64,000 nucleotides of DNA from an uncultured Planctomycetales bacterium (GCA_964645795.1 CAZYCL010000001.1:287194-351193); one strand, 5' to 3'; positions 43,372 through 61,153 are shown, counted from the first letter of the stretch. Numbers and translations: made by a program. Notes: generated by a model from the sequence alone, not told the origin.

Positions 43372-43399
43372 TTGACTGGTATGCCAATTAGTGTAAAAT
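43372..43399 (+). promoter_or_regulatory. Candidate promoter TTGACT-16-TAAAAT for the tRNA-Asn gene
   Basis: TTGACT at 43372-43377 and TGTAAAAT at 43392-43399, about 34 nt before tRNA position 1. Confidence 0.4.
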
Positions 43400-43432: not shown

Positions 43433-43749
43433 TCCCCCTTAGCTCAGTCGGTAGAGCGAGTGGCTGTCAAATCCCGCCAGTGGCGGGATTTGTGCCTAAC
43501 GCAGAGGCGTTCGGCACAAGAGGCAGCTTCCTTGGGAAACCAGGGTTGAAACAGCGGGCTAATTCAGGGAAGTCCCGAGAGATCGGGATAATCCTGAGCT
43601 AAGTCTCCAGTTTAAGGAGTAAATGCGCAGAGACTATACACCCGCCTCCTAAAGCGAAAGCTACGGAGAAGAGATAGTCCACTTCCGGAAGTAATTCCGG
43701 GTCAAGTGTAACCACCAGGTCCGAGGTTCGAGTCCTCGAGGGGGAGCCA
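43433..43749 (+). tRNA. tRNA-Asn (anticodon GUU) interrupted by a group I intron. Exons are 43433-43467 and 43709-43749, including the encoded CCA.
   Basis: Joined exons give TCCCCCT-TA-GCTC-AGTCGGTA-GAGC-G-AGTGG-CTGTTAA-CCACC-AGGTC-CGAGG-TTCGAGT-CCTCG-AGGGGGA-G-CCA. The acceptor stem is 7 bp, U1-A72, G73, the canonical Asn anticodon loop CUGUUAA, a T-loop TTCGAGT, and an Asn-like D-loop. Confidence 0.7.
43468..43708 (+). other. Group I self-splicing intron (~241 nt) between anticodon positions 35 and 36 of tRNA-Asn
   Basis: R-like CAGAGACTATACA (43629-43641) and S-like AAGAGATAGTCC (43669-43680) form P7 (GACTAT/ATAGTC). There are three GNRA-capped hairpins (GAAA, GAAA, GTAA), a terminal omega-G (43708), and the 5' exon ends in U. 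It is too short to encode a homing endonuclease. Confidence 0.65.
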
Positions 43750-43757
43750 TCTTTAAC

Positions 43758-43788
43758 AAATGCCTTACTCATATGAGTAAGGCATTTT
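43758..43788. terminator. Perfect 30-bp palindrome AAATGCCTTACTCATATGAGTAAGGCATTT with flanking T/A runs, directly after the tRNA
   Basis: Read directly. It could act as a bidirectional terminator. Confidence 0.5.
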
Positions 43789-43944
43789 GCTTGCAGATGG
43801 TTTTTTTACGAATTTACGGCATGTTCATAAAACCGAACTTTTTGAAATAAGTTTTCGATAAATTTATTAACATCCTTTTTTTGTTCTTTAATAGTATAAT
43901 GAGCTTCGGGTCTTGATTTAATTTCGGAGGAGATAAAAATAGGC

Positions 43945-44415
43945 ATGAAGGAAGAAGGCCTTGGTAAAGCTCTTTTGAGCGTCTTGGTCGTGTCGGTTGT
44001 GGTGGTTGGTGTTATTGCTTTTATTTTCTATCGGGTGAGGCTGATTGGGCCTGTAATTGTTGTTTTGGGTTTTGTTCCGTTGATTCCTTTGAAGCTGTCT
44101 GGCAGGTCGGTTAAGTCAGCTGGTGCAGACATTATTTTTGGGGCTATCGATACAGGTCTCTTGGGAGTTGCTGCCCTTATTGGGGCGAGTTTTGCTGGAG
44201 TGCTCGGAGCTATTGTCGGTGGTGCTGTCGGGGATTCGATTACTGATGGGTTGGCTGGCTTGTTTGAGGGAAAGATTGCTGAGCGTTTGAGAAAGCTCGG
44301 GATTGATGAAGCACGGACTCCTCTCAGTTCTTCAATGGGGAAGATGAGCGGTTGTCTATTTGGGGTTGGAGTTGTTTTAACAATTGCTTGGAGTATAATC
44401 GGAATAAGTATGTAA
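43945..44415 (+). CDS. Gly/Ala-rich hypothetical membrane protein (AT-rich island)
   Basis: 156 aa, three or four hydrophobic helices, lower GC than the flanks. Confidence 0.4.
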   Translation: MKEEGLGKALLSVLVVSVVVVGVIAFIFYRVRLIGPVIVVLGFVPLIPLKLSGRSVKSAGADIIFGAIDTGLLGVAALIGASFAGVLGAIVGGAVGDSITDGLAGLFEGKIAERLRKLGIDEARTPLSSSMGKMSGCLFGVGVVLTIAWSIIGISM

Positions 44416-44520
44416 AAAAACGGTTATGAAAATATCGTTTGCCACCTACAGCCTTTTCTTACACTGCTTAGTCCTACAAATATCGTAATAGAAAAGTTCG
44501 GATTTTTGGGGGGACGTGGG

Positions 44521-44571
44521 GAGTTTGACTTCCTAACCCTCTGCGATATAATATATTGCAGAGGGTTTTTG
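44521..44571 (+). terminator. 51-nt repeat module ending in a terminator hairpin CCCTCTG-N-CAGAGGG plus TTTTTG (copy 1)
   Basis: A near-identical second copy lies at 46108-46158. Confidence 0.5.
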
Positions 44572-44609
44572 CTTTACAGTTATTCGTTAGGGACAAGTAT
44601 TAAATTAAT

Positions 44610-45617
44610 ATGGCTAAGATAAATAAGCTACTTAGAACGTTACCAGTGCTAATATATTGGATTTTTGCATTATTGGTACTTTTTGAAATAGGAGTTCGGT
44701 TTTGGGGTTATTCCCAACATTATATTTACGACCCAATCTATAAAGAATTTGACAAGAGTAAAGATTTGCCTTATATCCATAAGCCAAATCTTAAAAATGC
44801 TCGAGGGCGCGGATTGACTAATGTCAATACGGATGTTCTGGGTCTGCGTTCAAAAATGCCAGGTATTAAATATGGACCGAAGAAAGAGAATGATTATAGG
44901 ATCGTAATATTAGGCGATTCAGTGGCCTTCGGAGAAGGCGTAAAGATGGAGGAAGACACTTTTGCTCAGGTGCTTGAAGATATTCTTAACACAAAACAAC
45001 ATTCCTTTGTCGTTAAGGTATTCAACTATGGAGTTTCGGCGTACAGCATTAAGAATATGGTGGCAACCTTACAATATAGAGCGCTGGATGTAGAGCCGGA
45101 TTTGGTCCTTATGACGGTCATTCCTGACGACTTTCGGATTGACAGAACGGTTGTTGTAGACAAGTTCGGGTACACCTTTAATAAACGTTTATCCGGTTTC
45201 ATGAATAAGGATTCCGCTATAAAGCGTTTATTACGGGAAGTGCATTTAGTATATCTTCTTAGGGATATAAAGCATTTTTACATTGATCGGATCCGAAATA
45301 CAAAAGACATGGGCCCATCAGATTCCTTGGATGATTATGCTTATATTGTAAAATTTAAAGAGATCTCAACGCAGCATGGCTTGCTTTACGCGGTAGTGCT
45401 TTTACCAGATCTCGCTGAAGATTTTAAAAGTTTGTTAGCAAAATTAAATCAAGATGAAATAGTCTCTATCGACCTCTCGTTTCTTAAGAATGAATTTACT
45501 CCTCGTGAATTTATGGCGAGTAAGTTTGATAGACATCCTTCGGCAATTGTTCATAGAAGAATAGCCAGAATGCTTTCGGAATACATTATAAGCAATCAAT
45601 TGATACCCAAGAAATAG
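44610..45617 (+). CDS. Membrane-anchored SGNH/GDSL hydrolase-family protein (paralogue 2, AT-rich)
   Basis: LGDSVAFGEG (block I) and DRHPS (DxxH). N-terminal TM. Confidence 0.6.
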   Translation: MAKINKLLRTLPVLIYWIFALLVLFEIGVRFWGYSQHYIYDPIYKEFDKSKDLPYIHKPNLKNARGRGLTNVNTDVLGLRSKMPGIKYGPKKENDYRIVILGDSVAFGEGVKMEEDTFAQVLEDILNTKQHSFVVKVFNYGVSAYSIKNMVATLQYRALDVEPDLVLMTVIPDDFRIDRTVVVDKFGYTFNKRLSGFMNKDSAIKRLLREVHLVYLLRDIKHFYIDRIRNTKDMGPSDSLDDYAYIVKFKEISTQHGLLYAVVLLPDLAEDFKSLLAKLNQDEIVSIDLSFLKNEFTPREFMASKFDRHPSAIVHRRIARMLSEYIISNQLIPKK

Positions 45618-45766
45618 CCTCGGAATCTATCTTTAAAAAGGGATCGAAAGGGTTTCTGCATCGAGAAAAATTCGCGGGCATAGATTTGACCATTAGAAAA
45701 ATAAATTCTTAATGACTTAATTTTTTTATAAAACAAAGCCCAACACGACAAGTTTTAATTCCTACT

Positions 45767-45850
45767 CCCCCGTCATACACCAGTTGCAAAACTCGTCCAA
45801 GAGGCGGAGCCAAAATTAGCCCGGCACGAAAGTGCTGGGCTTTTTTATTT
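45767..45850 (+). repeat. Conserved ~60-nt 3' module (CTCCCCCGT..GTTGCAAAACTC..AGGC..AGCCA) followed by a hairpin terminator 45818-45850 (copy A)
   Basis: It aligns with 47240-47300. The terminator is AGCCCGGCAC-GAAA-GTGCTGGGCT plus T6. Confidence 0.45.
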
Positions 45851-46017
45851 TCGCGCCCTCTCGAGAAAAGGGGGATTTTAAGGGGAAAAGACCGTTTTCC
45901 CCTTAAGGTTGAAGTCTTTTGATTGCTAAGGAAGGGATGACACCCGCCACGCTTTTTGGCGGGGCCATAGGGGAAACCATTGGGTTTCCCCTATGGGGAG
46001 CGAGCGCAAGCGAACGA

Positions 46018-46038
46018 CAGGTCCGCAGGTTCGAGTCC
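46018..46038 (+). other. 21-nt near-copy of the tRNA-Asn variable-loop/T-arm segment (CAGGTCCGCAGGTTCGAGTCC), set in a hairpin-dense non-coding stretch
   Basis: It matches tRNA positions 43716-43735 with one inserted C. There is no acceptor-stem match. Confidence 0.4.
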
Positions 46039-46107
46039 CTAAGCGGCCAAGGCGCGAAGCTCCGAGGGAGCGCCGGAAATGCTCTGCATTTCCGGCGCCC
46101 CGAGGCG

Positions 46108-46158
46108 GAGTTTGATTTCCTAACCCTCTGTGATAGAATATATTGCAGAGGGTTTTTG
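46108..46158 (+). terminator. 51-nt repeat module with terminator hairpin (copy 2)
   Basis: GAGTTTGATTTCCTAACCCTCTGTGATAGAATATATTGCAGAGGGTTTTTG, about 92% identical to 44521-44571. Confidence 0.5.
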
Positions 46159-46200
46159 ATTGGATAAAGCGGTTATCCCGTTGGATGATTATTTAATCTA

Positions 46201-47160
46201 ATGATGTTACAAAATAAAAATAGGGCAGATAATTTAAGAAAGAAAATACTTTTGGTGCTGTTAGGGGTTGTTGCGGCGTTGATTCTTGTTGAATTGTTAT
46301 TGCGGATATGCGGTTTTGTCTACAAAAGCATCTATAGTCCGAAGCAAAAAAATTTAGGTAATTATACAATATTTTGCCTGGGCGAATCTACTACATGGGG
46401 AGTTGGAGCAAGGAATCCATCATTGCAGAGTTATCCGAGGCAGTTGGAAGGAAAATTAGCTGTCATGTATAAGAGTTTGGGTATAAAAGTCATTTATGAT
46501 CAAACAATAGGCCAGAATACTTCCGAAATTTCAAATAAACTGCCGTTTTATATTGAAAAATACCGCCCGCAAATAGTAATAATCATGTGCGGCGCTAATA
46601 ATTTCTGGAACTTAGATAAAAGTAACATATTGTTATTTAATAAGAATAAATATATTGCCGATACCGCATTGAATATTTTAATGTTTTTGGATAAATTCAG
46701 GATTTGGAAATTATATAAATGGCTGAGTTTGAATTCTGGTTTTTATAAACATAGATGGAATTATTATTATCCGTATAGTTACCCCTGGTATGTTTTGTTG
46801 AGAGAAATGGAGCGGGAATATAACGGGATGGGTATTTTTTATAAAATTGCGGACTACGATATAAGAGAAATGGTAAAAACCTGCAAACGAAACGGGATTA
46901 AGCTGATTATCTGTAATTATCCGGGCGGGGTAGGCGCGCCCCTTGATTCTTTACAAAAGAAGATTGCTACGGATTTTCAAGTTGTTTTCGTAGACAATAA
47001 GAAAATTTTTGGTGAACTTCCTAATGCCAAAGATTATTTTTCCACAGACAAGTGGCATCCTAATGAAGAGGGATATGGGATTTTGGCTGAAAATGTATAT
47101 GATGCTATAGTCAAAAACAAGCTGTTGCAAAAAAGCAACAATGGCAATACCCTCCCGTAG
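46201..47160 (+). CDS. SGNH hydrolase-like protein (paralogue 3; block I reads GES not GDS)
   Basis: FCLGESTTWGVG and DKWHPNEEG (DxxH). N-terminal TM. AT-rich. Confidence 0.5.
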   Translation: MMLQNKNRADNLRKKILLVLLGVVAALILVELLLRICGFVYKSIYSPKQKNLGNYTIFCLGESTTWGVGARNPSLQSYPRQLEGKLAVMYKSLGIKVIYDQTIGQNTSEISNKLPFYIEKYRPQIVIIMCGANNFWNLDKSNILLFNKNKYIADTALNILMFLDKFRIWKLYKWLSLNSGFYKHRWNYYYPYSYPWYVLLREMEREYNGMGIFYKIADYDIREMVKTCKRNGIKLIICNYPGGVGAPLDSLQKKIATDFQVVFVDNKKIFGELPNAKDYFSTDKWHPNEEGYGILAENVYDAIVKNKLLQKSNNGNTLP

Positions 47161-47239
47161 TTGATACCGAATACTTAGCTTTAATTTACTGAGCCGCTTA
47201 ATTTAATAAAGCCGGCTCTGGGTATGGTTTTTTCGCCTC

Positions 47240-47327
47240 CCCCCGTAATTAACCGGTTGCGAAACTCCTCCGATAAAGGCAGCCATACTTAGAATAGCCC
47301 TACTCATATGAGCAGGGCTATTTTTTT
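47240..47327 (+). repeat. Conserved 3' module (copy B) followed by the hairpin terminator AGCCCTACTCATATGAGCAGGGCT plus T7 (47294-47327)
   Basis: It aligns with 45767-45826. The hairpin centre CTCATATGAG is the same as in the palindrome at 43758. Confidence 0.45.
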
Positions 47328-47606
47328 GACAAATTACCTGAACTGTCGGGTTTGCCGCTGCCCCCATCCCCCGAAAAGCCGGATCTTATTTAATTGTATC
47401 TATTCCGGGGTATTTGTGCTAGACTGTAAATAGTCAACTATCCTTGCACCTCGGTAAAACGAGACAGTCCGTACCCGGCACGCCCTGAAGATCCTTCGCG
47501 TATTCCACCCCAATCAGGCTGTTTTATTTTTCCCTCACGGTTGACCGTTTAGTTCCAAAAATCACTTACTGCGCATCCCCGGCATTTTTCAGGAAGATAA
47601 CGTCAA

Positions 47607-48788
47607 ATGGTAAAAATGAGTAAAAAGATCAATGTGCTCCATGTAGCGACCCTGAACCGGCCGATCAGGCAGGACCTGGGTTACGGCCCTATCGAAACGG
47701 TTATTTATAACATCGATAAGGGCATCCACGCATTGGGCTACCGTTCGATCGTCGCCTGTTCCGGCGATTCCCGCGTTGCCGGAGAACAGTATACCACTAT
47801 TGAAAAAAGCTTCAGTGAATACTGGAGCGAAAATACGCGCGCGCAGCAACGAAATATGCGCAGGCATCTTGCCATGTCGCTTGGAAGGGCAAAAAAAGGC
47901 GACATCGATATCATCCACATGCATGATGCCATTATGGCAGAATATATTTTTAAGGGGGTCTTTAAAAGCCCGGTCCCTATCGTAATGACGCTCCATGTGC
48001 CTGCTGAGGAAAAAGGATCGTTCAAGCGCTGGAATGAATCGCTCGCTTCTTCTTCCGCCGCGTATTTTGTCCCGATCAGCGAATACCAGAGAAGGCAGCA
48101 TCACGGGCTGGTCAACGCGCAGAAGGTCATCCATCACGGCATCGATGTAGAGGGCTACCCGTTCAAAAGCGGCCCCGCAAAACACGACTATCTGTTCTCG
48201 ATCGGCAGGATCACTCAGGATAAAGGCCAGGATAAAGCCATCGAGATAGCGAAGAAAACCGGCTCCCGGCTCATACTTGCCGGCAATGTCCAGAACAAAG
48301 CAAAAGACCGGGCATTTTTCAAAAGATTAAATAAGTCCATCGACCTTGTGACTGACGCCGGAAAGCCTTTTACCGGCAGCGATTATTATGAGAAGGTAAT
48401 GAAACCCATCCTGGATTCGGGCAAGCAGATCATCTATATCGGCGAAGTTGACAGGGACCAGAAAAAACTGTGGTACCTGCACGCGCGCATGACCCTCTTC
48501 CCTATTCAGTGGGGCGAACCGTTCGGGCTCGTGCTGATCGAATCCATGGCCTGCGGCACTCCGGTGGCCGCCTTTCGCAAGGGCTCGGTGTCCGAAATCG
48601 TCATTCACAAAAAAACAGGTTTTGTCGTGGATTCGATAGATGAGATGGCTGAGGCCGCGAGGGCAAGCCGCCTTATCGATCCCAACGACTGCCGCAGGCA
48701 CGTTGAAGATAATTTCTCGATTGCCGTTATGGCCGGGAAATATTCACAACTATACCGGTGGATCTTGACGAAAGGACTCCATGCCTAA
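47607..48788 (+). CDS. Glycosyltransferase family 4 (GT-B, RfaB-like)
   Basis: Conserved EPFGLVLIESMACGTPV (EX7E region) and the GT4 C-terminal domain. Confidence 0.75.
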   Translation: MVKMSKKINVLHVATLNRPIRQDLGYGPIETVIYNIDKGIHALGYRSIVACSGDSRVAGEQYTTIEKSFSEYWSENTRAQQRNMRRHLAMSLGRAKKGDIDIIHMHDAIMAEYIFKGVFKSPVPIVMTLHVPAEEKGSFKRWNESLASSSAAYFVPISEYQRRQHHGLVNAQKVIHHGIDVEGYPFKSGPAKHDYLFSIGRITQDKGQDKAIEIAKKTGSRLILAGNVQNKAKDRAFFKRLNKSIDLVTDAGKPFTGSDYYEKVMKPILDSGKQIIYIGEVDRDQKKLWYLHARMTLFPIQWGEPFGLVLIESMACGTPVAAFRKGSVSEIVIHKKTGFVVDSIDEMAEAARASRLIDPNDCRRHVEDNFSIAVMAGKYSQLYRWILTKGLHA

Positions 48789-50742
48789 AGACATACCGGT
48801 AAGTAACGGGTCTTTTCTTTTGAATTTCGATCCGGATTATCAGATCCGGGATGTTTATTTCCCTTTTATCGGCCAGGAAAACCATTCCAGCGGCCATCCC
48901 TTCCGCTTCGGCGTATGGGCTGATGGCAAATATTCATGGATGGGCCCGGATTGGGAAAAAGACCTGAGATACCATAACGAGAGCCTGGTCACGGATGTCT
49001 TCTTAAAAAATGAGGCCCTGGGCCTGGAGCTGCGCTGCTCGGATGTGGTGGACCTGGATCTTAACATCTACGTTAAAAAGATCGAGGTAACCAACCTGCA
49101 TGATAAGGCGCGGCAGGTCCGGCTTTTTTTCAATCATGATTTTTACCTTTATGGCAACGATGTCGGAGGCACGGCCTATTTTGATCCGCGCAGCTGTTCG
49201 ATCATCCACTACAAGATGCACCGGTATTTTCTTATCAGCTGCCGGGAGCATGGCAATTGGGGCGTCAAACATTTTACCTGCGGCAGGAGAGGGAACCCGG
49301 AAAGCCCAACTGCCGGCAAAGACGGCGAAAACGGGGAGCTTGACGGCAATCCGTCCGCGTGGGGCTCTCCGCATTCTACCCTCGGCATTTGGCTGGAATT
49401 GCCGGCCAAGGGGAAAACAGACGCCTATTACTGGATAGCGGCGGGCACTACCTATCCGGAAGTCGCAAAGCTTAATTTGGAGGTCCATCAAAGATCGCCG
49501 GAAGAGCTCATCAGGCGCTCGTCAAAATATTGGACGACCTGGGTGCATAAACAAACCCTTAAAATAAAGGGGCTGCCAAAATCGATAACCGATGTTTTCA
49601 GCCGCAGCCTCCTTATCCTGAGAACGCAGATCGACAACCATGGCGCCATTATCGCCGCCAACGATTCCGATATCGTCCGTTTCGGAAAAGATACTTATTC
49701 GTATATGTGGGGCCGGGACGGCGCTTTTGTCGCCGCCGCTTTAGCGAAGGCCGGGTACTCCCATGTATGCATGAAATATTTTGATTTTTGCGCCCGCGTC
49801 CTGTCAGAAGAGGGCTATTTATTCCAGCATTATAACCCGGACGGGTCCCTTGCCAGCAATTGGCACGCCTGGCTGGTTGACGGTAAAGAGATCCTTCCCA
49901 TCCAGGAAGACTCGACCGCTTTGACCCTCTGGGCGCTCTGGATACACTACCAGAGCCTGAAAGACGTGGAATTTATCCGACCCCTCTACGGCACGCTCAT
50001 TAAAAAAGCCGCGGATTTCCTGGTCGGTTACCGGGACCCTCAAACCCTGCTGCCGCTGCCTTCCTATGACCTTTGGGAAGAACGTTACGCGCTGCACGCC
50101 TATACGGCTGCGTCCGTGGTCGCAGGCCTCAGGGCCGCAGCTGATTTTGCCAAGCTCTTTCAGGATACCTCCCTGGCGAAAAAGTATGACCTTGTGGCGG
50201 ACGAAATTGCGGCAGGCGTCAGCCAACACCTTTATCATGCCGGACTAAAGCGATTTGCCCGTTCGGGCTCCAGGGTAAACGGTGGTTACAAGCTTGATGA
50301 GGTCATCGATATCAGCCTGTTAAGATTGGCGTCTTTTGGGGTCCTAGACCCCAAAGATCCGCGGATGATCGAAACAGCCAGAGCCGTACGCCAGCAGCTG
50401 TGGCTTAAGACTCCTGTTGAAGGCTGCGCCAGATACCAGGGCGATATCTATCAGCGAGTGGAGAACAGCCCAAAAGACATCCCCGGCAATCCCTGGTTTA
50501 TCGCAACCCTTTGGCTGGCGGAATACTTCATCGACCTGGCAGAGGACCAAGGACAGCTTCAAGCAACCCTTCCTTACCTTGAGTGGTGCGGGAAAAACGC
50601 GCTCCCTTCCGGCGTGCTTGCCGAGCAGGTGCATCCGGTAAACGGCTCACCTCTTTGCGTCTCGCCTCTTACCTGGAGCCATTCCGCTTTTGTCTGGACC
50701 GTCCTGCGCTACACTGAAAAGGACAGGGCGCTTAAAAAATAA
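48781..50742 (+). CDS. Glycoside hydrolase family 15-like protein (glucoamylase/glucodextranase/trehalase clan)
   Basis: (alpha/alpha)6 catalytic-domain motifs YSYMWGRDGAF, LWEERYALHAYT, NPWFIATLWLAEY. 653 aa with an N-terminal beta domain. Confidence 0.7.
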   Translation: MPKDIPVSNGSFLLNFDPDYQIRDVYFPFIGQENHSSGHPFRFGVWADGKYSWMGPDWEKDLRYHNESLVTDVFLKNEALGLELRCSDVVDLDLNIYVKKIEVTNLHDKARQVRLFFNHDFYLYGNDVGGTAYFDPRSCSIIHYKMHRYFLISCREHGNWGVKHFTCGRRGNPESPTAGKDGENGELDGNPSAWGSPHSTLGIWLELPAKGKTDAYYWIAAGTTYPEVAKLNLEVHQRSPEELIRRSSKYWTTWVHKQTLKIKGLPKSITDVFSRSLLILRTQIDNHGAIIAANDSDIVRFGKDTYSYMWGRDGAFVAAALAKAGYSHVCMKYFDFCARVLSEEGYLFQHYNPDGSLASNWHAWLVDGKEILPIQEDSTALTLWALWIHYQSLKDVEFIRPLYGTLIKKAADFLVGYRDPQTLLPLPSYDLWEERYALHAYTAASVVAGLRAAADFAKLFQDTSLAKKYDLVADEIAAGVSQHLYHAGLKRFARSGSRVNGGYKLDEVIDISLLRLASFGVLDPKDPRMIETARAVRQQLWLKTPVEGCARYQGDIYQRVENSPKDIPGNPWFIATLWLAEYFIDLAEDQGQLQATLPYLEWCGKNALPSGVLAEQVHPVNGSPLCVSPLTWSHSAFVWTVLRYTEKDRALKK

Positions 50743-50787
50743 CGACCGTTAAACGGGAAAAAACCGTTATTTTAACCTTGAAGAAAA

Positions 50788-50821
50788 GCCTCTGCAGCAA
50801 GATATGATGCAGGGGTTTTTT
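50788..50821 (+). terminator. Rho-independent terminator CCTCTGCAGCAAGATATGATGCAGGGG plus T6 after the GH15 gene
   Basis: 8-bp stem and a T-run. It belongs to the same hairpin family as 44521 and 46108. Confidence 0.55.
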
Positions 50822-50874
50822 ATTACTATTTTTTATTGTAATGGTATAATTAAGGAAAAGGAAAAGGAGCGGCG

Positions 50875-51102
50875 ATGGGCAAACTTATTTTAATTCTGAT
50901 ACTACTGGTTATCGTAACGATAATATATTACGTATTCAAGACAGATAAAGCAAGGCAGGCGGAAAAAAACGGCCAGAAAGATGCCCGCTCTAAGGCGAGC
51001 GAAAGAATAATGGGCCCGGAAAGAAAGCTCCACCGGGAAGAGAAAAAACGCTGGGAAGACGACTACTGGAAACGACAGGAAAAAAGAGACCCCCAGGCCT
51101 GA
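50875..51102 (+). CDS. Small single-TM protein with a Lys/Arg/Glu-rich tail
   Basis: AAGGAG SD 5 nt upstream. 75 aa. Confidence 0.45.
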   Translation: MGKLILILILLVIVTIIYYVFKTDKARQAEKNGQKDARSKASERIMGPERKLHREEKKRWEDDYWKRQEKRDPQA

Positions 51103-51120
51103 TCCGTCCCGGGATTACGG

Positions 51121-51753
51121 CTAAAGGCGAAAGCTTTTGAACGCCTTCTCGATCCTTGATAAAGACGCGGGATCTATGTAAATTTCCCTTTTCTCCAAAG
51201 GGCCGCCCGCATAGGCCTCCCTTACCTCGTAATGCAGGATCTTTAAAACGAACGCGCCGTTAAGAAAATAAGTGACGTGCAAACAGCTGCGGCGGCCTTT
51301 CTCTTCTTTCTCTTCCAACCAACTCTGGGCCTTTACCATTCGCTCATACGCATCCCGGGCGCTGGACGCGTCATAATACCTTTGCGCGATCAGATTTACT
51401 GAGTCGACACAAAGGTTTGCGGTTTCAACGGGTTCTTTTCGGGAGGACGCGTGCGCGCCGGGCCGGGAAATAGCCATATCTTGCCCGCGTTTCCTCATGG
51501 CCTCTCTTGTTGCCTGCCTTGCTTGAGCGTACCGGCTGTCTTGAAGCTCACGCTGCCGGCTTCTTTCCAGCGCGTCTTCCATGCCCTGGGGATAAGACGG
51601 GCCTTGCTCTGTTGCTGCAAGCCCTGCCGCGCGAAAATGCCGCAAGAGAGAGTCGATTGTTGTCCCGGATGCGGCTTGAAGAAGGCCGGCCTGGGCGCAC
51701 AATGAGAAGAATGCCGAGATAAAGATTAATATCTTACGAATATCCCGCTTCAT
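51121..51753 (-). CDS. Secreted hypothetical protein (start moved to the Met with a GGAGGG SD)
   Basis: Signal peptide MKRDIRKILIFISAFFSLCAQA. The ORF-track start 51774 would contain the SD. Confidence 0.4.
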   Translation of the reverse strand: MKRDIRKILIFISAFFSLCAQAGLLQAASGTTIDSLLRHFRAAGLAATEQGPSYPQGMEDALERSRQRELQDSRYAQARQATREAMRKRGQDMAISRPGAHASSRKEPVETANLCVDSVNLIAQRYYDASSARDAYERMVKAQSWLEEKEEKGRRSCLHVTYFLNGAFVLKILHYEVREAYAGGPLEKREIYIDPASLSRIEKAFKSFRL

Positions 51754-51834
51754 AATCCCTCCTATCCAAGTCAACTTCTATAGTAAATATCCTATCAGGA
51801 AAACTGCAGCTATTTCCCGTAAACAGGGATACCT

Positions 51835-52953
51835 TTAAGGAGCCTGCCTGCTCCCCAACCACTCCTCTACCATTGGATAAAGGGCCTCTGCCGCAAAAAT
51901 GTGGCCTGCGGGGGTGTAATGGTCATAATCCATGAAATACCTTTTCCAGACCCTCTCTCTCCCATCCACCCCTGCTTCTCTGCGGGCCTCATCTTCAAGC
52001 AGTCCTAAAAGCTCCAGGTACCCCATATCATTGCGCCGGGCAAAATCCCGCAGCATCTCTTGCGTGCGGCTCTGGGCCGGACCGAAGAACTGGAAACGCG
52101 CCGGCGACACCATCAGTATGCAGCCGATCCCGTTTTCCCGGCATAGCCTCACCTCTTTCTGCAGCCATTGAAAACATTCTTGCCGGGCGCTGCGCAACTT
52201 CTTGTCATCTAAGGCGAGGCTGTCCGCCTTCTCGCACAATTCAACCTCCCGCTGCAGCGCTTCATAAGGCAGGGCCTTGTCGCCGAACACCCCGAACCTG
52301 ATCTTAGCCGCCGCTCTGCTCAAGAACAGGTAAAACCTGCTTTTCTCTCTTAAGAAATAATGCCAGCGGCACCAACCAGTCATCTCATGGTAATCGCTCT
52401 TACTGCCGCCGTACTTGCGGCAAACCAGGTATGGCTCTATGACGTCGTTGAGCGCAAATTGAATGATCACGATATCGGGGCTAAAGGCCAGGCCGCGCTT
52501 CAGGTCGATGTATTCCTGAAAAGGGGAGTTTCCCGGCACAGCCGTATTGATGACCTCAAAACGGGATTTTTTATTTTTCCTGTTCAAAAGCCGCTCAAGG
52601 ACCCGGGGGTAAGCGTCATCTGCGCCAACGGCGTGACCGAAACTGATGGAATCCCCCACGACCAGTATCCGGACAACGCCCCTGCCCTTCTCGATGGGGA
52701 TCTGCGGGCTCCTGTAGCCGAAAGAGTTTGTCTCTACCGGCTTGCCGGCGAACTCGCCGTCTTTGAGGTTCTTTTTCAAACGGTATATCTTTTCTTCGTC
52801 GTATTCAAATATGAATTTCCCGGGATCCTGCGCCGGATGATACCAAAGGCGGCAGGCAAACTCCGCCGCGCCGAAGAATACGGCCAGAAAGAATACGGCC
52901 AACGCGATATTGCCGCAGATATTGCTTATCCGTAACCTGCGCCCCTTAACCAT
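51835..52953 (-). CDS. Membrane-anchored SGNH/GDSL hydrolase-family protein (paralogue 4). Its start overlaps the upstream stop by 8 nt.
   Basis: VGDSISFGHAVG and DHYTPAGH. TM anchor NIALAVFFLAVFF. Confidence 0.6.
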   Translation of the reverse strand: MVKGRRLRISNICGNIALAVFFLAVFFGAAEFACRLWYHPAQDPGKFIFEYDEEKIYRLKKNLKDGEFAGKPVETNSFGYRSPQIPIEKGRGVVRILVVGDSISFGHAVGADDAYPRVLERLLNRKNKKSRFEVINTAVPGNSPFQEYIDLKRGLAFSPDIVIIQFALNDVIEPYLVCRKYGGSKSDYHEMTGWCRWHYFLREKSRFYLFLSRAAAKIRFGVFGDKALPYEALQREVELCEKADSLALDDKKLRSARQECFQWLQKEVRLCRENGIGCILMVSPARFQFFGPAQSRTQEMLRDFARRNDMGYLELLGLLEDEARREAGVDGRERVWKRYFMDYDHYTPAGHIFAAEALYPMVEEWLGSRQAP

Positions 52954-54250
52954 GGAGCGCCGGATTCCCGGAAATGAATTTGCCGACATTCAGAATACAC
53001 TCGTCCATGTTTAAATAATCCCAATTACCGCTCCTGCCTACAGTAAAGATATTATGTCCGTTGAGGATACCGCAAACCTCTCCCCGGGCCTGCTCAAGGC
53101 CTACCGTGGGTATAGGATAGGTGTATTTTACCAATCTTGTCTCGGTTAAAGCGATATCATCACAGGAAGCCACAATGCCAAGGCGAATAAGCTCCTGAAC
53201 CACCAGCTCGCTGATCTCTTTTTCGCTCCTGCCCGGAGAATCTTTCTTACGGGTCACCTCCGCTACTAACGCCGGCGCAAACTCCGGGCTGAAATTATGC
53301 ATCATGGTGAAGCGGTAAAATATCTCGTCCTCCTTGAAGAATGCCCAATGGCAATCCGCAAACATCTTGAAACCGCAGCCCCTTTTAAGTCCGACCAGGG
53401 TAAAAAAGGTGTCGTTCCAGCTAAACAGCCTCTCTTTTCCTTTAAGCCCGTCAAGCGGGAGCTTTCCGAAGAGCTCTACGAGCGGGATCGTGGAGAAGAT
53501 TACATCCGCCTCATAGCTTTTATCTTTGGCCATTACCAGCCACCTGACGCCTTTTTTCTCCAGCCTTTTCACCTCGGAATCCAGCATTATCCTGTCCCGG
53601 ATGCCCTGCGTCAGGTGTTCGATAAAGCCCTGTATGCCCTCTCTCGGATAAATGAACCTGGCCTGATGCTTCCTGCCGGAGTTCTTTAACCCCAGAAGAA
53701 ACAGGATAAAATCCAGGGTCGATGACGGCTCGATTTTAGAAGTCACCAGCCTGCTGGATATGCGCGAAAGCGGGCAGTCCCATATCTTCTGATTATAAGG
53801 CGTCATGAAATGCCGCGCGATCCCCGGGCCCAGATAGCGATCGATCCAATCCTGAAGACTAAGACATTGACTGCCGCAGCGCGAGCGTCCGAAGAAATAA
53901 CCACGCAGACACTCCAGCTTATCCTCCAAAGGCAGCTCCCGGATCCCCAGCTCAAAAGGGTAGCGAAGGAGGCGTTTTCCGCCATTCCTGTCCGAATGCA
54001 GGATCCTGACCTTCCTGTCCAGAACCGAATAAGCCAGCGGCAACGAATGGAAATAACCCGCCATCTCCTTGTGCCGGCTGTACAAGGCGTGAACGGAGAA
54101 ATCCCAATGGTACTGCCCGGTCTTATTGGTCCGGCACAATCCTCCGGCCTGAGGCTCTTTCTCAAGGATAATGAAATCCTTGCCCATATCCTTGAGCCTC
54201 CTGCCCAGCTCTATACCGGTGACTCCGGCGCCCAGTATGGCGAACTTCAT
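52946..54250 (-). CDS. FAD-dependent oxidoreductase of the UDP-galactopyranose mutase (Glf)/amine-oxidase-like superfamily
   Basis: N-terminal ILGAGVTGIE FAD fold. C-terminal GRSGNWDYLNMDECI resembles the Glf C-terminus. Confidence 0.55.
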   Translation of the reverse strand: MKFAILGAGVTGIELGRRLKDMGKDFIILEKEPQAGGLCRTNKTGQYHWDFSVHALYSRHKEMAGYFHSLPLAYSVLDRKVRILHSDRNGGKRLLRYPFELGIRELPLEDKLECLRGYFFGRSRCGSQCLSLQDWIDRYLGPGIARHFMTPYNQKIWDCPLSRISSRLVTSKIEPSSTLDFILFLLGLKNSGRKHQARFIYPREGIQGFIEHLTQGIRDRIMLDSEVKRLEKKGVRWLVMAKDKSYEADVIFSTIPLVELFGKLPLDGLKGKERLFSWNDTFFTLVGLKRGCGFKMFADCHWAFFKEDEIFYRFTMMHNFSPEFAPALVAEVTRKKDSPGRSEKEISELVVQELIRLGIVASCDDIALTETRLVKYTYPIPTVGLEQARGEVCGILNGHNIFTVGRSGNWDYLNMDECILNVGKFISGNPALHG

Positions 54251-55035
54251 CTTTTATTGCCCCGCAACTCGCTGCTTAATCTCCAAAGCCCAAACATGAC
54301 CTTAAACATGATCCGGGGCAGGCCAACGGCAGAAAAAATCCTGCTTTTTCCCTTAGCCGGCCTGGCGCGGTGCGAGACGCAAACCTCTCCGATTGCGAAA
54401 CCCGCCCGGCGGGCCCTCAGCATAAACTCCGTCATCACGCAATAGTCAAGGAGCCGGACATCGTTTAGCACCGCATCGATCACTTCTTTTCTTATCAGCT
54501 TGAACCCGGAATTGATGTCCCTCATCCCGATCCCGAATAGCGCGCGGACCAGGAAGTTATACGCCGCGGAAATTATCAGCCGGTGCCGGGGGTCAAAACG
54601 CCGGCACCTTCGGCCGCTTACGACATCTTTATCTTCCATGGCCGCCAGCAGCTTAAAGAAATCGCCCGGATCGTGCTGGCCGTCCGAATCGCTAAAGAAT
54701 ACAAGCTCGCCATCCGCCGCCTTTAATAGATCCTTGAATGCCCGGGTATAACCCTTTCGCACACCTGAGCTGACCATGACAAAAGGTATCTTTTTATTCA
54801 AGGCGACAAGCACCTCTTTTGTCCCATCGGTACTGCCGTCCTCGGCGATCAATAACCTTGAACCGTTGTATTTCTTGACTACCTTTTCGTAGAAATCCTC
54901 CAGGGTTTGGGCGATGGTGGCGGCCTCGTTATAAACAGGGATAACCGCGGTAAGGCTTAAACTCCCGCCCTGAGCGCTATTTTTTATCTGCATAGGTATA
55001 ATCCCAGTACGAAACTTCCTGGCGGCCGCGGACAA
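54247..55035 (-). CDS. GT2 glycosyltransferase, polyprenyl-phosphate sugar synthase (DPM1/ArnC-like). The true start may be Met 54993.
   Basis: VIPVYNEA, EDGSTDGT and DSDGQHDP (DXD) motifs. Confidence 0.75.
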   Translation of the reverse strand: MSAAARKFRTGIIPMQIKNSAQGGSLSLTAVIPVYNEAATIAQTLEDFYEKVVKKYNGSRLLIAEDGSTDGTKEVLVALNKKIPFVMVSSGVRKGYTRAFKDLLKAADGELVFFSDSDGQHDPGDFFKLLAAMEDKDVVSGRRCRRFDPRHRLIISAAYNFLVRALFGIGMRDINSGFKLIRKEVIDAVLNDVRLLDYCVMTEFMLRARRAGFAIGEVCVSHRARPAKGKSRIFSAVGLPRIMFKVMFGLWRLSSELRGNKR

Positions 55036-57112
55036 GATCCTTAATCACTATCCTGCCGCCTATAAAATCCACATCCACTATGGCTTCCGGTCGGAAGCCG
55101 GCGAAGTAAGGCAGCGTCGATAGCTTTCTGGAGCGGTTCTCCACATAGACGTGTTCAACGCGCATTGCCTTGTTACCGTCCTTGAGTATGACCAACAAAG
55201 GATACTCCCACCAGTCCTTCTTTAAAACCAGCCCGACGTTCTTATAACCTTTTTCCCTTATATAACGATCAACCCTGCGGTATTCGTTTTCGATACCGGG
55301 CGATAATAAGAAATATTGGCTGAACCGCGTTCCGGAGAATATATTATCTTTACCCGCAAGCCTCCTGGTCCCGTTGAAAAACACCCAGGGCAACGCAAGA
55401 ATGAACAGCGTGACGCAGATGATGACCGGCGCCTTCAAATTCGAACGATAACGCAGCGCCAGCAACGCTAAGATGAAAAAACCCGCAAAGACATTAAAGG
55501 TGCCGCCAAAGAGTAAACAGGCGATCCTATCCAACGGGACAACCGGACCGTTACGCATCAACGCTTCGGTCAGGACCCCGCCGAAGTAAAGATACGCCAG
55601 GAATACCCCTGCAAGCAGCATAAATGTTTTCAGCGCTCTTCGGAATGCGGTTTTAGCGCGCAAAAATCCGGTGCCCTCTCCTGCCGGGGATAGCGCCGCT
55701 GCTACCGGAGCAGACCAGAGCACAAATAAAGGCAGGTGCAGACGGCTCTGCCACGGCGTCCATTTCAACAGCAGAGAAAATAACATAAATGCGCACGTCA
55801 TAGCCAGGAAATAGTGCTTCAAGCAAGCCGCTTGCCCCTTACGCAAGATCGCGATCCCCGCCGCCATTATTAATAACAGGTGCGCAAAATTACCGGCATG
55901 ATCCTCATAAAAGGAGAGCTTTATGTAATACTGCCAATAGGCAAAGGTGGTGCGCGGATCGCTTATATCCACGCCAAGGAGCCGGTGGACAAAGATCAAC
56001 GCCTTTTCCGTGAAGGCATTGAGAGCATCACCGGGCATCCCCAGGTGCAGGCCGATCTGTTTTAAAACGCTGGAGGCAAAGAGTGGCGGGGTAAAGGCGC
56101 TGTTAAGCTCCCTGCCGGTCCCGGCCAGGATGTTCCCATAGAGGAAGAGATTGCGCGTATAATGCCCCAGGTTAATAATGAGGGCGACCAGGAGCATGAC
56201 AACCACAGCCCTCCATAACCGCGGCCTGTCCGCAAAACGAGTAAATGAAGACAACCCAAGCCAGGCCATGAACGCAAGGGCGCAGATATAGGCCTGATGC
56301 TTGGTAAGAACAGCCAAACCAAGCGCTGCCCCGGCCAATAAGGCGTAGGTAACGCGCGGCGAACTTTTTAACAGCAGAAGAGTATAAACAAAACAAACCA
56401 ACCAGAAGCTTACGGCATAGTCATTAAGCGTGCCCGAAGACTGCAGGATGCCCATAGGTATGGTGGCAACCACTACGCCGGCAAAAAGCTGCCCCTGGCT
56501 TGCGGCCCCAAGCCGGCGCGCGATAAGCGATACGCCGATGATGCTGCCTATCATGCTCAGCCACTGGACGAAGCCGGCGAAACGGTCAGAGCCGCTTAGT
56601 ATCTGCAGATGCAGGATAGCAAACTCCGCCAAGGGATTACGGTGCAACTGCCTTTCGACATGCGTAGGATAATGCGCTATATTGCGGTCCTGTATCCAAT
56701 GGGATACCCTGGCCATATGATACGCCATTGAATCCCAATCATTAGGGGCACAGGTATAAGCGATGAGCGCCGTGGCGGCAACGATAAAAACTAAACAGCC
56801 AAGCAGCAAGACCGAGGATGGGCGTAGTTTAGAAGCTTTGAACCGGATAGCGGGTTTTTGCCTGCGGGCCAATATTGCCAGGAAAACGGACAATAACAAA
56901 CAGAGCGCGCCCCACGATACGGATAAACCGGGCAAGGTTATCAGGTTGAATAAACTCAAGAGCTCGGTCATCGCAGCCAACAAACACCCGAATGTCACGG
57001 CGCAAAACAGGAGGTTTTCGCGCAGGGATAACGCAGCGCCGCGGCCCGAGCTAAATGCGTTAAGTATCATGAAGATCAACAGAAAACAAAACAGTGGTAA
57101 GATCAATAACAT
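54977..57112 (-). CDS. GT-C fold membrane glycosyltransferase (ArnT/PMT, GT39/GT83-like), 711 aa
   Basis: About 13 TM helices and a C-terminal soluble domain. It is coupled to the GT2 gene. Confidence 0.55.
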   Translation of the reverse strand: MLLILPLFCFLLIFMILNAFSSGRGAALSLRENLLFCAVTFGCLLAAMTELLSLFNLITLPGLSVSWGALCLLLSVFLAILARRQKPAIRFKASKLRPSSVLLLGCLVFIVAATALIAYTCAPNDWDSMAYHMARVSHWIQDRNIAHYPTHVERQLHRNPLAEFAILHLQILSGSDRFAGFVQWLSMIGSIIGVSLIARRLGAASQGQLFAGVVVATIPMGILQSSGTLNDYAVSFWLVCFVYTLLLLKSSPRVTYALLAGAALGLAVLTKHQAYICALAFMAWLGLSSFTRFADRPRLWRAVVVMLLVALIINLGHYTRNLFLYGNILAGTGRELNSAFTPPLFASSVLKQIGLHLGMPGDALNAFTEKALIFVHRLLGVDISDPRTTFAYWQYYIKLSFYEDHAGNFAHLLLIMAAGIAILRKGQAACLKHYFLAMTCAFMLFSLLLKWTPWQSRLHLPLFVLWSAPVAAALSPAGEGTGFLRAKTAFRRALKTFMLLAGVFLAYLYFGGVLTEALMRNGPVVPLDRIACLLFGGTFNVFAGFFILALLALRYRSNLKAPVIICVTLFILALPWVFFNGTRRLAGKDNIFSGTRFSQYFLLSPGIENEYRRVDRYIREKGYKNVGLVLKKDWWEYPLLVILKDGNKAMRVEHVYVENRSRKLSTLPYFAGFRPEAIVDVDFIGGRIVIKDLVRGRQEVSYWDYTYADKK

Positions 57113-57194
57113 TATCGCTCCACGCCCGCCAGGTACGCCGCGCTAACCGAGCGGCACCCTGAATAAACACGCCGGCCCGGGTTTGCCGGCCGAT

Positions 57195-58754
57195 TCATTG
57201 TTGCCTGACGTAAACATGCCATCCGGCTAACTCCTCGATATCTATTCTTTTTGAGAACTCCGGCAAATAGCGCAGCACGCTTGTTGACCTCTGCAGGGCC
57301 TCATTTTCCGGCAGCACGACCATCGCCAGGCGCGGGGGAATATGCCTGAAGAACTGCTCCCTGCCCACCCGGTCACCGGCCAGCTCCCTATCCGCTATGG
57401 CGTCCGAAAAATGATAGGCCTTGCCTTCAACTGCCAGATGCAGCAGCGGATTTCCGGGAAAATAAACCTCTCCCTTATGCCGCTCAAGGAACCGGCAGGC
57501 CGGCGCATAGGGCTCCCTTAGCGACATTGAATCATCATAAGAATGGCTGAACAAATAAGGTAGGTTCACCAGAAGGAAAGCCGCGACCATTATCCTGGCC
57601 AGCGCAGGCATGCCCCGTCCTCCCTTGTCTGCAGTATCGGAAATAACGCCGGCCAAGGCGGCTGAGGCAGCGATGAAAAAATAGTAAGTGATAAAACTAA
57701 GGGTATTCAGCGCGCCTCCGGCCTTCAGCTTTGTCAAAACCGACACAGGCATCAAGGCCAGGCTTAAAAACAAGAATATCAGCCAACGGTCTTGCCGCAG
57801 CATCTGCCTGATCCCGAAAGCCTTGCCGCAAAAAATAAGCCCTGCCAAGGCCAAAGAGATAAACACGAATAGCCCGCAGCCAAGCTCCCTGGTCAAAAGG
57901 TATCTTAAGGGGTAGGTAAAGTAAGGGCTGAAGGGATGTTTCATAGGCATGAGGAACAGGTTATAAAACATGGCTTCCGGATCGAAGAAGCTGAAAAACA
58001 CCAAAGCTGTGACGGCGCTCCAGGCCAGAAGATAGATTACATAGCGCAAGAAAACTTTTCTGCCCCAAGCCAAATATAAGTAAAACGGCAGGGCCAGGAT
58101 CCCCGCCAGCATTACCTGTTTAGTCCAGCAGGCCAATACAGCCAGAAGGCTTGAAGCCGCCAGGAGAACCCTATCCCGGTCGTCACGGAGCCGCAAAAGA
58201 GCTAATCCCGCCAGCGCCCCGAGCCCCAAAGCCGGGGCATCGGCGTGGATGGAAAGGAAGGTGTCTTTGAGCGAATCCGCCCCGGAGGCAAAACAAAAAA
58301 AGACAAAAAAAGCGGCCCAGGCCGTAACCCGCCTGTGCGGACCGCCGGATGCCGAGAAAATAATGAATAAAACCGGCAGCAATGCAAAGCCTGCGGATAA
58401 CCAAAGGCCGCAGATCAACGCCCCCTTTAGAGAAGGAAAGATAACCGCGGGCAGATAGGCTGCCGCTGCTAACGGCCCGTAGATGTGGCCGGAGATCACG
58501 CCCTCGCCAGGCAGGGTATAAAGCGCAAAGCCCTTTGCCAGCATGAACGACGGAGCCAGCCTGCAGCAGTTCCATTGCGAAAGGCTATATTGCAGTGATA
58601 TCCGGGAGACGATAAAGAGAGCCGCGGCAAACCCCATGAGGATATTCGTAAAAACCAGCAGCTTCACCGGGAACTCGCAACGGGAGAACTTGAGGGGGAT
58701 ATAAATCGAAAGCGCTAAAGCGATGAGGAAATAGCAGGATATGAAGAAAAGCAT
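57195..58754 (-). CDS. Large polytopic membrane protein, possibly a second GT-C-type transferase
   Basis: 519 aa, about 12 TM helices and a C-terminal soluble domain. It is the first gene of the operon. Confidence 0.4.
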   Translation of the reverse strand: MLFFISCYFLIALALSIYIPLKFSRCEFPVKLLVFTNILMGFAAALFIVSRISLQYSLSQWNCCRLAPSFMLAKGFALYTLPGEGVISGHIYGPLAAAAYLPAVIFPSLKGALICGLWLSAGFALLPVLFIIFSASGGPHRRVTAWAAFFVFFCFASGADSLKDTFLSIHADAPALGLGALAGLALLRLRDDRDRVLLAASSLLAVLACWTKQVMLAGILALPFYLYLAWGRKVFLRYVIYLLAWSAVTALVFFSFFDPEAMFYNLFLMPMKHPFSPYFTYPLRYLLTRELGCGLFVFISLALAGLIFCGKAFGIRQMLRQDRWLIFLFLSLALMPVSVLTKLKAGGALNTLSFITYYFFIAASAALAGVISDTADKGGRGMPALARIMVAAFLLVNLPYLFSHSYDDSMSLREPYAPACRFLERHKGEVYFPGNPLLHLAVEGKAYHFSDAIADRELAGDRVGREQFFRHIPPRLAMVVLPENEALQRSTSVLRYLPEFSKRIDIEELAGWHVYVRQQ

Positions 58755-58879
58755 GAATTTAAACTATATCCTTTTTTCCCAACGCCGGCTGGAGCTGAGC
58801 GGTCAGCGGCAGGAATGCATACTTGAAGATCAATTTTAACATAGATAAGGACCCCGTTCAATCCATTTATAAACGGGGG

Positions 58880-59209
58880 TTAAACCCTGCAGCCGCAGTT
58901 CTTATTACGCAATATCTCGGCCTGTCTCTTTGGGGAATCGACAAATTCAGATTGTTTCCTGGCGCCCAGGGCAAACCTTTTCTCAAGCCTGCTGTTATGC
59001 CGATAACCTCTCCTGAGCAGCTCTTTAACAAGCAAGCCGTGCCTTGAATACAGGGCTGCAAGCTTGCCCTTCCATCGCAGGGTTTCCGGATGCCGGCAAT
59101 AGCCCTTTTTGTCCTTTGTCAAGACGCTCCATACCGCGTGCACCTCCCTGTGCTCTCCCAACAGGTGATTGCGGCATAGCTTCTCAGGCGCAATATCCCA
59201 GACCCTCAT
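58880..59209 (-). CDS. Pyrimidine dimer DNA glycosylase (T4 endonuclease V/Pdg-like) family protein
   Basis: MRVWDIAPEKLCRNHLLGEHRE...GYCRHPETLRW resembles the MRLWSLHPKYL...HPQ N-terminal region of Pdg-like proteins. Confidence 0.45.
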   Translation of the reverse strand: MRVWDIAPEKLCRNHLLGEHREVHAVWSVLTKDKKGYCRHPETLRWKGKLAALYSRHGLLVKELLRRGYRHNSRLEKRFALGARKQSEFVDSPKRQAEILRNKNCGCRV

Positions 59210-59215
59210 GCCTGC

Positions 59216-61147: not shown

Positions 61148-61153
61148 CTAGAG

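Follow-up and report, generated by a model that had tools for sequence, protein, structure and literature searches.

A split tRNA-Asn(GUU) gene

The locus analyzed here lies in a 64-kb stretch of DNA (the window) and consists of a tRNA-Asn(GUU) gene whose anticodon is interrupted by a group I intron. Its parts are as follows.

43433-43749, + strand: split tRNA-Asn(GUU) gene, comprising a 35-nt 5' exon, a 241-nt intron and a 41-nt 3' exon
43433-43467, + strand: 5' exon, tRNA positions 1-35, ending in U35 (the -1 U); from direct reading and in-silico splicing
43468-43708, + strand: group I intron, 241 nt, without an ORF; identified by Rfam RF00028, bounds from identical intron-less genes
43708, + strand: omega-G, the terminal guanosine preceding the 3' splice site; from the ends of homologues and the junction in uninterrupted genes
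43709-43749, + strand: 3' exon, tRNA positions 36-76, CCA encoded; from direct reading and in-silico splicing

ARAGORN reported zero tRNAs in the unspliced 64-kb window. Because the program is blind to this tRNA in the raw sequence, the exons were joined by hand: all plausible pairs of ends were spliced in silico, and each product was rerun through ARAGORN. Joining 43467 to 43709 gave a 76-nt cloverleaf identified as tRNA-Asn(GTT), with a single mismatch, A27/C43, closing the anticodon stem. The 5' exon reads UCCCCCU UA GCUC AGUCGGUA GAGC G AGUGG CUGU, and the 3' exon reads UAA CCACC AGGUC CGAGG UUCGAGU CCUCG AGGGGGA G CCA. The spliced molecule carries U1-A72 and G73, which have a role in tRNA-Asn identity.

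A covariance-model search for a group I intron, named as a check in the original prediction, was positive: Intron_gpI (RF00028) matched 43488-43701 over the full model (83.9 bits, E = 6.9e-20; gathering score 50), and it was the sole match in the 64 kb when all Rfam families were scanned at their gathering thresholds. From this match we conclude that the observation is real and far beyond chance. When homologues were searched without requiring a terminal G, 41 of 41 true introns nevertheless ended in G, as does the intron in the window. A check for coding content found no ORF, the longest stop-free stretch being 44 codons, and the intron is therefore not mobile by itself.

The original prediction, made from the sequence before these searches, thus described the gene well. 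A tRNA-Asn(GUU) split by a 241-nt intron is supported by ARAGORN on the spliced RNA, by the Rfam match and by the identical uninterrupted genes described below, while direct reading recovers U1-A72, G73, the D-loop AGUCGGUA, the anticodon loop CUGUUAA, the T-loop UUCGAGU, the final U of the 5' exon and the terminal G of the intron.

Uninterrupted genes fix the junction at 35/36

To place the junction, we relied on metagenome contigs that were scanned for uninterrupted anticodon and T arms of the window tRNA; uninterrupted tRNA-Asn genes with these arms were found on 72 contigs (L123-L194). The predicted spliced RNA equals such genes at 76 of 76 positions on 10 metagenome contigs, the 5' exon being identical to their 5' part, and 13 further metagenome contigs carry a tRNA-Asn gene at 75/76 identity. 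The uninterrupted genes read GGCTGTTAACC, which is the product of the 35/36 junction. Because 10 uninterrupted genes are identical to the predicted Asn product, the junction is fixed between positions 35 and 36, where it had been predicted, and a Thr(UGU) junction at 33/34 is excluded. A group I intron thus splits tRNA-Asn(GUU) at 35/36.

The Thr(UGU) reading, with the intron two bases upstream, the splice after U43465 and a terminal G43706, deserves mention because its junction (43465/43707) likewise has a U at -1 and a terminal G, because ARAGORN assigns the resulting 76-nt cloverleaf to Thr(TGT), and because the Asn/Thr ambiguity is itself on record in the literature, ARAGORN and tFind having recurrently misannotated 35/36 tRNA-Asn genes as Thr(UGU) (PMC13011429); however, it is already contradicted and has a vanishingly small probability, since uninterrupted genes with matching exon sequence show GGCTGTTAACC and not the GGCTTGTAACC that it would yield, U35 makes a U.G wobble in P1 with an invariant guide G while U33 faces an A, and the tRNA body has U1-A72 and G73, its best full-length matches in E. 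coli genomes being annotated tRNA-Asn (a weak match, 72.5% identity, E = 2). In shared conserved neighbor genes, the metagenome contigs are only ~65-74% identical to the window at the nucleotide level, so that the 72 contigs provide no closely related pair with and without the intron.

Core helices are intact and covary

The secondary structure of the intron from P2 onward comprises the following elements, with pairing given for the alignment of homologues.

43530-43545, + strand: P2 hairpin CCUUGG-GAAA-CCAGGG; 98.6% of cells paired, 6/6 pairs changed on both sides
43554-43558, + strand: P3 5' strand GCGGG, pairing with 43641-43645; 100% paired, 4/5 pairs double-changed
43564-43597, + strand: P4, UCAGGG 43564-69 with UCCUGA 43592-97, around P5; 97.9% paired, 4/6 pairs double-changed
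43573-43588, + strand: P5 UCCCGA-GAGA-UCGGGA; direct reading, aligned poorly among homologues
43598-43626, + strand: P6, GC 43598-99 with GC 43625-26; 100% paired
43605-43619, + strand: P6a, CUCC 43605-08 with GGAG 43616-19; lengths vary among homologues
43630-43637, + strand: P7 5' strand G-(A bulge)-GACUAU; 98.6% paired, A-U to U-A swap in 10 sequences
43641-43645, + strand: P3 3' strand CCCGC; homologue alignment
43646-43668, + strand: P8 CUCC-UAA-AGC-GAAA-GCU-AC-GGAG; outer helix 100% paired, 3/4 pairs double-changed
43674-43680, + strand: P7 3' strand AUAGUCC; homologue alignment
43684-43701, + strand: P9 hairpin UCCGGAA-GUAA-UUCCGGG; direct reading and Rfam P9, 6/7 pairs double-changed, alignment loose

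For covariation, 24 homologues were aligned with MAFFT after excision of the P1 loop. Across this set 88.9% of cells pair, compared with 70.9% in shuffles, and 36 of the 55 pairs changed on both sides; the observed values were reached by none of 500 shuffles, and pairing fell to 34-48% in controls with slid partners. P2, P3, P4, P7 and P8 are 97-100% paired in the 24 homologues, and the lower scores of P5, P6a and P9 reflect variable lengths and a loose MAFFT alignment of these helices. The P3/P7 pseudoknot and the core helices P3-P8 are present and supported by covariation in the 24 sequences, and the core elements that are invariant across the homologues are all intact in the window intron.

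P7 pairs GACUAU (43632-43637) with AUAGUC (43674-43679), in agreement with the R-like and S-like segments from which it had been predicted to form. Within this helix, G43632-C43679 is the presumed guanosine-binding pair, judging from what is known of group I introns in general, and the segments AGAGACU and AGUCC are invariant in 24 of 24 sequences. Only ACA (43638-43640) lies between P7 and P3', and a P7.1/P7.2-like insert is absent. P8 carries CCUAAA/UACGG, a variant of the 11-nt GAAA-tetraloop receptor that most relatives have in P8 in its canonical form, CCUAAG/UAUGG; we refer to this element as a putative tetraloop receptor. GNRA loops cap four hairpins (L2 GAAA, L5 GAGA, L8 GAAA and L9 GUAA); the original prediction was right about such hairpins, the P9-like one included, but had counted three.

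P1 and the internal guide sequence

Three elements make up the 5' domain of the intron.

43462-43468, + strand: P1 5' strand, exon GGCUGU plus intron C43468; pairs with 43522-43528, splice after U43467
43469-43516, + strand: P1-loop insertion with two stable hairpins (43470-43490 and 43491-43518); fold
43522-43528, + strand: internal guide sequence (G)GCAGCU, P1 3' strand; homologues and fold

P1 forms between the last exon bases, GGCUGU, and the guide GCAGCU (43523-43528), so that U35 (U43467) lies opposite G43523. An unconstrained fold of 43460-43550 recovered P1, both loop hairpins and P2 (z = -6.3), with P1 gaining one further pair, C43468-G43522. The U.G pair at the splice site is present in 24 of 24 aligned homologues, and GCAGC is invariant and immediately 5' of P2 in all 48 sequences compared (the window and 47 homologues), where the guide is followed by a hairpin mostly capped by GAAA, then by UGAAA and P3. 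Furthermore, tRNA position 30 covaries with the sixth base of the guide (GU in 18 sequences, GC in 3 and CG in 3).

This assignment replaces the guide candidate of the original prediction, 43543-43555, which the homologues do not uphold, as they place GCAGC before P2. That segment, which is complementary through ACAGC to GCUGU and through GGUUG to UAACC, consists of the P2 3' strand, J2/3 and the bases just before P3, and its pairing at the splice site would be U-A, not U.G. The true guide had escaped notice because a 55-nt P1-loop insertion parts it from the splice site. The fold of the insertion reaches -32 kcal/mol (z = -6.15), with C43468 and A43469 unpaired. Its first stem can be extended by sequence to 43468-43492; this hairpin was considered as an extended P1 and rejected, because U35 would face U and the hairpin lies inside the P1 loop. 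No further copies of the P1-loop hairpins were found within the 64-kb window. The Omnitrophota locus L003 has an equal two-hairpin layout with a different sequence in the second hairpin, and among the loci listed the P1 loop of relatives ranges from 6 to 364 nt.

As for P10, many relatives have GUUA before the guide, complementary to UAAC of the 3' exon. No convincing P10 pairing was found in the window intron, where only U36.G43522 is possible, so that this helix is essentially absent.

Flanking signals and gene neighborhood

Signals that could delimit a transcript lie on both sides of the gene.

43372-43399, + strand: putative sigma-70-like promoter TTGACT-16 nt-TAAAAT; consensus match only, 10/12
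43758-43792, + strand: terminator-like hairpin with a 13-bp stem and loop AUAU, then UUUUGCUU; -19.9 kcal/mol, z = -5.16

Between the promoter-like element and the 5' end of the tRNA lie ~34 nt. The terminator-like hairpin is absent from the list produced by the consensus scan and was found by folding. Together, the two signals fit a transcript that covers this gene alone.

In relatives, the tRNA-Asn gene adjoins ABC-F, recR and dnaX, genes that occupy 59216-63396 of the window, and here 15.5 kb (43750-59216; glycosyltransferase, GDSL-lipase, GH15 and related genes) part it from them. The GC content falls to 0.41 at 44-48 kb, compared with about 0.52 elsewhere in the window. No repeat of the tRNA 3' end was found as the border of an integrated island.

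Related introns in other bacteria

Species-representative genomes were scanned for the tRNA-Asn D-arm pattern followed by CTGT and a non-T base, which gave at least 120 matches. Among the first 120 of these, at least 48 other bacterial genomes have a complete tRNA-Asn interrupted after U35 by an insert of 188-576 nt. By label, and among the matches listed, they include at least 12 Clostridia, at least 8 Nitrospirota, at least 6 Omnitrophota, at least 4 Planctomycetia/Planctomycetales and at least 4 Patescibacteria, with a dozen other groups represented once or twice each, a tally that is no measure of enrichment by phylum since the scan demanded one D-arm variant and excluded, for example, the printed Patescibacteria gene. 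Intron_gpI scored above the Rfam threshold in 25 of the 38 loci tested. The nearest introns among the matches listed are those of L003, an Omnitrophota MAG (76-77% identity), and of L061, labelled Planctomycetia (72-76%); the neighboring ABC-F protein shares 70-73% amino-acid identity with those of Omnitrophota and Planctomycetia-labelled MAGs.

In place of the two hairpins of the window copy, the P1 loop of some relatives contains an HNH-like endonuclease ORF. In these tRNA-Asn introns of ~550 nt, the ORF shows CxxC...HH...CxxCH motifs and its 3' end runs into the guide and P2. The carriers are L018, L021 and L057 (Nitrospirota), L046 and L078 (Omnitrophota), L026 and L099 (labelled Planctomycetia/Planctomycetales), L032 (labelled Gammaproteobacteria), and L070 and L073 (Patescibacteria). 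An ATG-started frame of 96-108 aa is present in five loci (L026, L032, L046, L073 and L078), and in L018, L021, L057, L070 and L099 the ORF was recognized from the DNA or read in part. Against Pfam HNH, these ORFs score 17-20 bits, just below the cut-off of 21.4.

A separate branch of the tRNA-Asn intron comprises L013, L015, L043, L048, L053, L074, L079, L107, L108, L112 and L121, all Clostridia MAGs and several of them from the gut. 5S rRNA lies directly upstream of the tRNA-Asn gene where it was found, in L013, L043, L048, L108 and L121. The branch fell below the RF00028 gathering score in the 8 loci scanned (L079 not among them), and four loci tested at E <= 0.01 gave no match; it aligns over P1-P9, with a canonical 11-nt P8 receptor and a 4-bp P10.

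Two loci hold additional intron-like sequence. L020 has a second Intron_gpI at 4681-4887 (+ strand, 56.4 bits), ~1.6 kb from its tRNA-Asn intron and near another tRNA. L038 (Nitrospira sp. CG24E) has two tRNA-Asn 5' halves with intron-like sequence 1.6 kb apart; the 3' exon is recognizable for the second half only, and the sequence after the first starts like an endonuclease ORF. BLAST of the locus against phage genomes gave no match, and a search of viral contigs with the exon pattern (L195-L314) found no group I introns; the hits there were only tRNA-Tyr(GUA)-like genes with introns of 8-59 nt after the anticodon, many of them on giant-virus MAG contigs.

A member of the tRNA-Asn 35/36 class with an IC3-like shape

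The original prediction held that a group I intron at this site of tRNA-Asn would be new. The literature refutes this: Asn.4Ug has been in the catalogue of such introns since 2020, and in 2026 self-splicing in vitro was reported for members from Patescibacteria. Williams 2020 (bioRxiv 10.1101/2020.01.27.920355) raised the number of known tRNA intron settings from the four classical ones to 21, and Nakagawa et al. 2026 (PMC13011429) credit the Asn.4Ug setting to that work. Nakagawa et al. found 28 introns at 35/36 among 4,934 complete genomes (19 in Patescibacteria, 3 in Cyanobacteriota, 3 in Nitrospirota and one in each of three other phyla), and name Patescibacteria and Nitrospirota as carriers of such introns in tRNA-Asn. 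They observed precise GTP-dependent self-splicing in vitro for one tRNA-Asn and one tRNA-Asp intron, and an omega-G to C change prevented the exons from being ligated (PMC13011429). In the Patescibacteria genomes that they tested, the intron-bearing gene is the sole tRNA-Asn copy, and in their survey of complete genomes endonuclease genes in 35/36 introns occur in Patescibacteria only (PMC13011429). The survey text does not name Omnitrophota or Planctomycetota as 35/36 hosts, and the one Omnitrophota row found in the accessible part of the published table is a tRNA-fMet intron at 33/34, not one in tRNA-Asn (PMC13011429).

The window intron is a further example of this known, experimentally validated class, in another bacterial lineage. 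It shares with the Asn.4Ug members the host tRNA, the insertion site, U(-1), the terminal G and the risk of misannotation as Thr(UGU), and with the published sequences (Table S5) the guide GCAGCU and a P2 with a GAAA loop followed by UUGAAA. Its identity to the Nitrospira intron of GCF_900169565.1 is 61% on shared core columns. It differs as follows. First, the published Nitrospira and Patescibacteria members have a P7.1/P7.2-like insert between P7 and P3', amounting to about 45 extra nt in Nitrospira-type relatives, whereas the window intron has none. Second, the window intron has a two-hairpin P1-loop insertion. Third, its host appears to be related to Omnitrophota or Planctomycetota.

The first of these differences bears on the subgroup. 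Among the published 35/36 introns, 25 of 28 are labelled subgroup IA (PMC13011429), and the tRNA-Asn introns whose subgroup is readable in the published table, three from Nitrospirota and one from Patescibacteria, are all IA1 (PMC13011429). The P7.1/P7.2 elements between P7 and P3' that mark subgroup IA are lacking in the window intron, which instead has an IC3-like organization, namely P1-P9 without P2.1, P5abc or P7.1/7.2 and collinear with Azoarcus. The Azoarcus pre-tRNA-Ile(CAU) intron (IC3) is likewise small and located in a tRNA anticodon loop, and in both introns P2 is capped by GAAA and P9 by a GNRA loop, while P8 is receptor-like (CCUAA.../...GG). P2-P9 are collinear one for one and without extra domains, at 52% identity over 178 aligned positions. 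The Azoarcus sequence was taken from PMC8890501, with its seven randomized positions filled in. Azoarcus differs in the host tRNA, the site (36/37), the guide (GUG) and the P1 loop, which has 8 nt (PMC8890501) compared with 55 nt in the window intron.

The original prediction also noted a segment recalling the IC3 introns of tRNA-Leu(UAA), and this resemblance is real: J5/4-P4'-P6 of the window intron, UAAUCCUGAGCUAAGUC, is similar to CAAUCCUGAGCCAAGCC of the cyanobacterial intron (published supplementary table), and the P7 segment GCAGAGACU of the window intron likewise resembles that of the cyanobacterial and plastid introns. The tRNA-Leu(UAA) intron nevertheless differs in its site (34/35), its core-column identity (48-52%) and its longer P9 with extra helices. 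The likeness to IC3 therefore holds for shape and not for sequence. It fits the shape because only three bases lie between P7 and P3' and the helices are collinear with those of Azoarcus; in sequence, it shares 56-76% of the core columns with the tRNA-Asn introns but 48-54% with IC3 introns from tRNA-Leu, tRNA-fMet and tRNA-Ile, and a neighbor-joining tree without support values places it among the tRNA-Asn introns. We give about an even chance to the reading that the window intron represents a branch of the tRNA-Asn 35/36 family that is compact and IC3-shaped, lacks P7.1/P7.2 and resides in Omnitrophota- and Planctomycetota-like hosts.

Proposed splicing pathway and alternatives

We consider it highly probable that the locus is a single tRNA-Asn(GUU) gene, cut in its anticodon between U35 and U36 by a compact group I ribozyme and spliced to a standard tRNA. 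Group I introns splice by a two-step mechanism initiated by guanosine. The elements needed for this mechanism are all present in the window intron and invariant in the family. On this basis, the gene would be transcribed alone as a ~320-nt precursor, and the intron would fold into P1-P9, with the GGCUGU/GCAGCU pairing putting the U35.G43523 wobble at the active site. A free guanosine docked on the G-C pair in P7 would cleave after U35; G43708 would then replace the free guanosine, the 5' exon would attack the 3' splice site, and exon ligation would give the standard 76-nt tRNA-Asn. By analogy with Azoarcus, tertiary contacts may involve the P2 GAAA loop with the receptor-like element in P8, and the GUAA loop that caps P9. 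Transcription, catalysis and splicing in the cell are thus predicted from the architecture of the locus.

Two alternatives bear on this pathway. Some group I introns need proteins, and the intron may be real but require a protein cofactor or an RNA chaperone for splicing in vivo. Without a P10 and with so large a P1 loop, folding or the choice of the 3' splice site could be weakened, and an insertion of this size could slow folding. We nonetheless consider a dependence on proteins unlikely: the helices match one for one those of the Azoarcus IC3 intron, which is used as a protein-free ribozyme (PMC8890501), members of the class with the same insertion site self-splice without protein (PMC13011429), and the intron itself encodes none.

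Still less probable is a decayed or inactive intron in a tRNA pseudogene, with another tRNA-Asn copy outside the 64-kb window serving translation. Signs of decay could be seen in the lack of P10, in the non-canonical tetraloop receptor of P8, in the 55-nt P1-loop insertion and in the missing endonuclease ORF. Against this, every core element invariant in the 24 homologues is intact, the core helices are all paired, the exons equal functional-looking uninterrupted genes, and both flanks carry promoter-like and terminator-like signals. ARAGORN finds no other tRNA within the 64 kb, and such genes are the only tRNA-Asn copy in the Patescibacteria genomes tested (PMC13011429).

Implications

The window intron opens no new kind of biology. 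To a class for which self-splicing has only lately been demonstrated, it contributes a compact variant and a host outside Patescibacteria, in a lineage that is not among the 35/36 hosts named in the published survey. For annotation, since ARAGORN is blind to the gene, tRNA-Asn would be counted as missing and the genome rated less complete than it is, and intron-aware tools reportedly miscall such genes as tRNA-Thr. The relatives suggest that the class is broader, and HNH-like ORFs more frequent, than the survey of complete genomes reported. If the window intron does belong to a compact, IC3-shaped branch, its two P1-loop hairpins would mark the site of a lost endonuclease gene, HNH-like endonuclease copies would be present in several phyla other than Patescibacteria, a Clostridia branch beside 5S rRNA would be escaping the Rfam model, and the family would be far more widespread beyond Patescibacteria than the complete-genome survey suggested.
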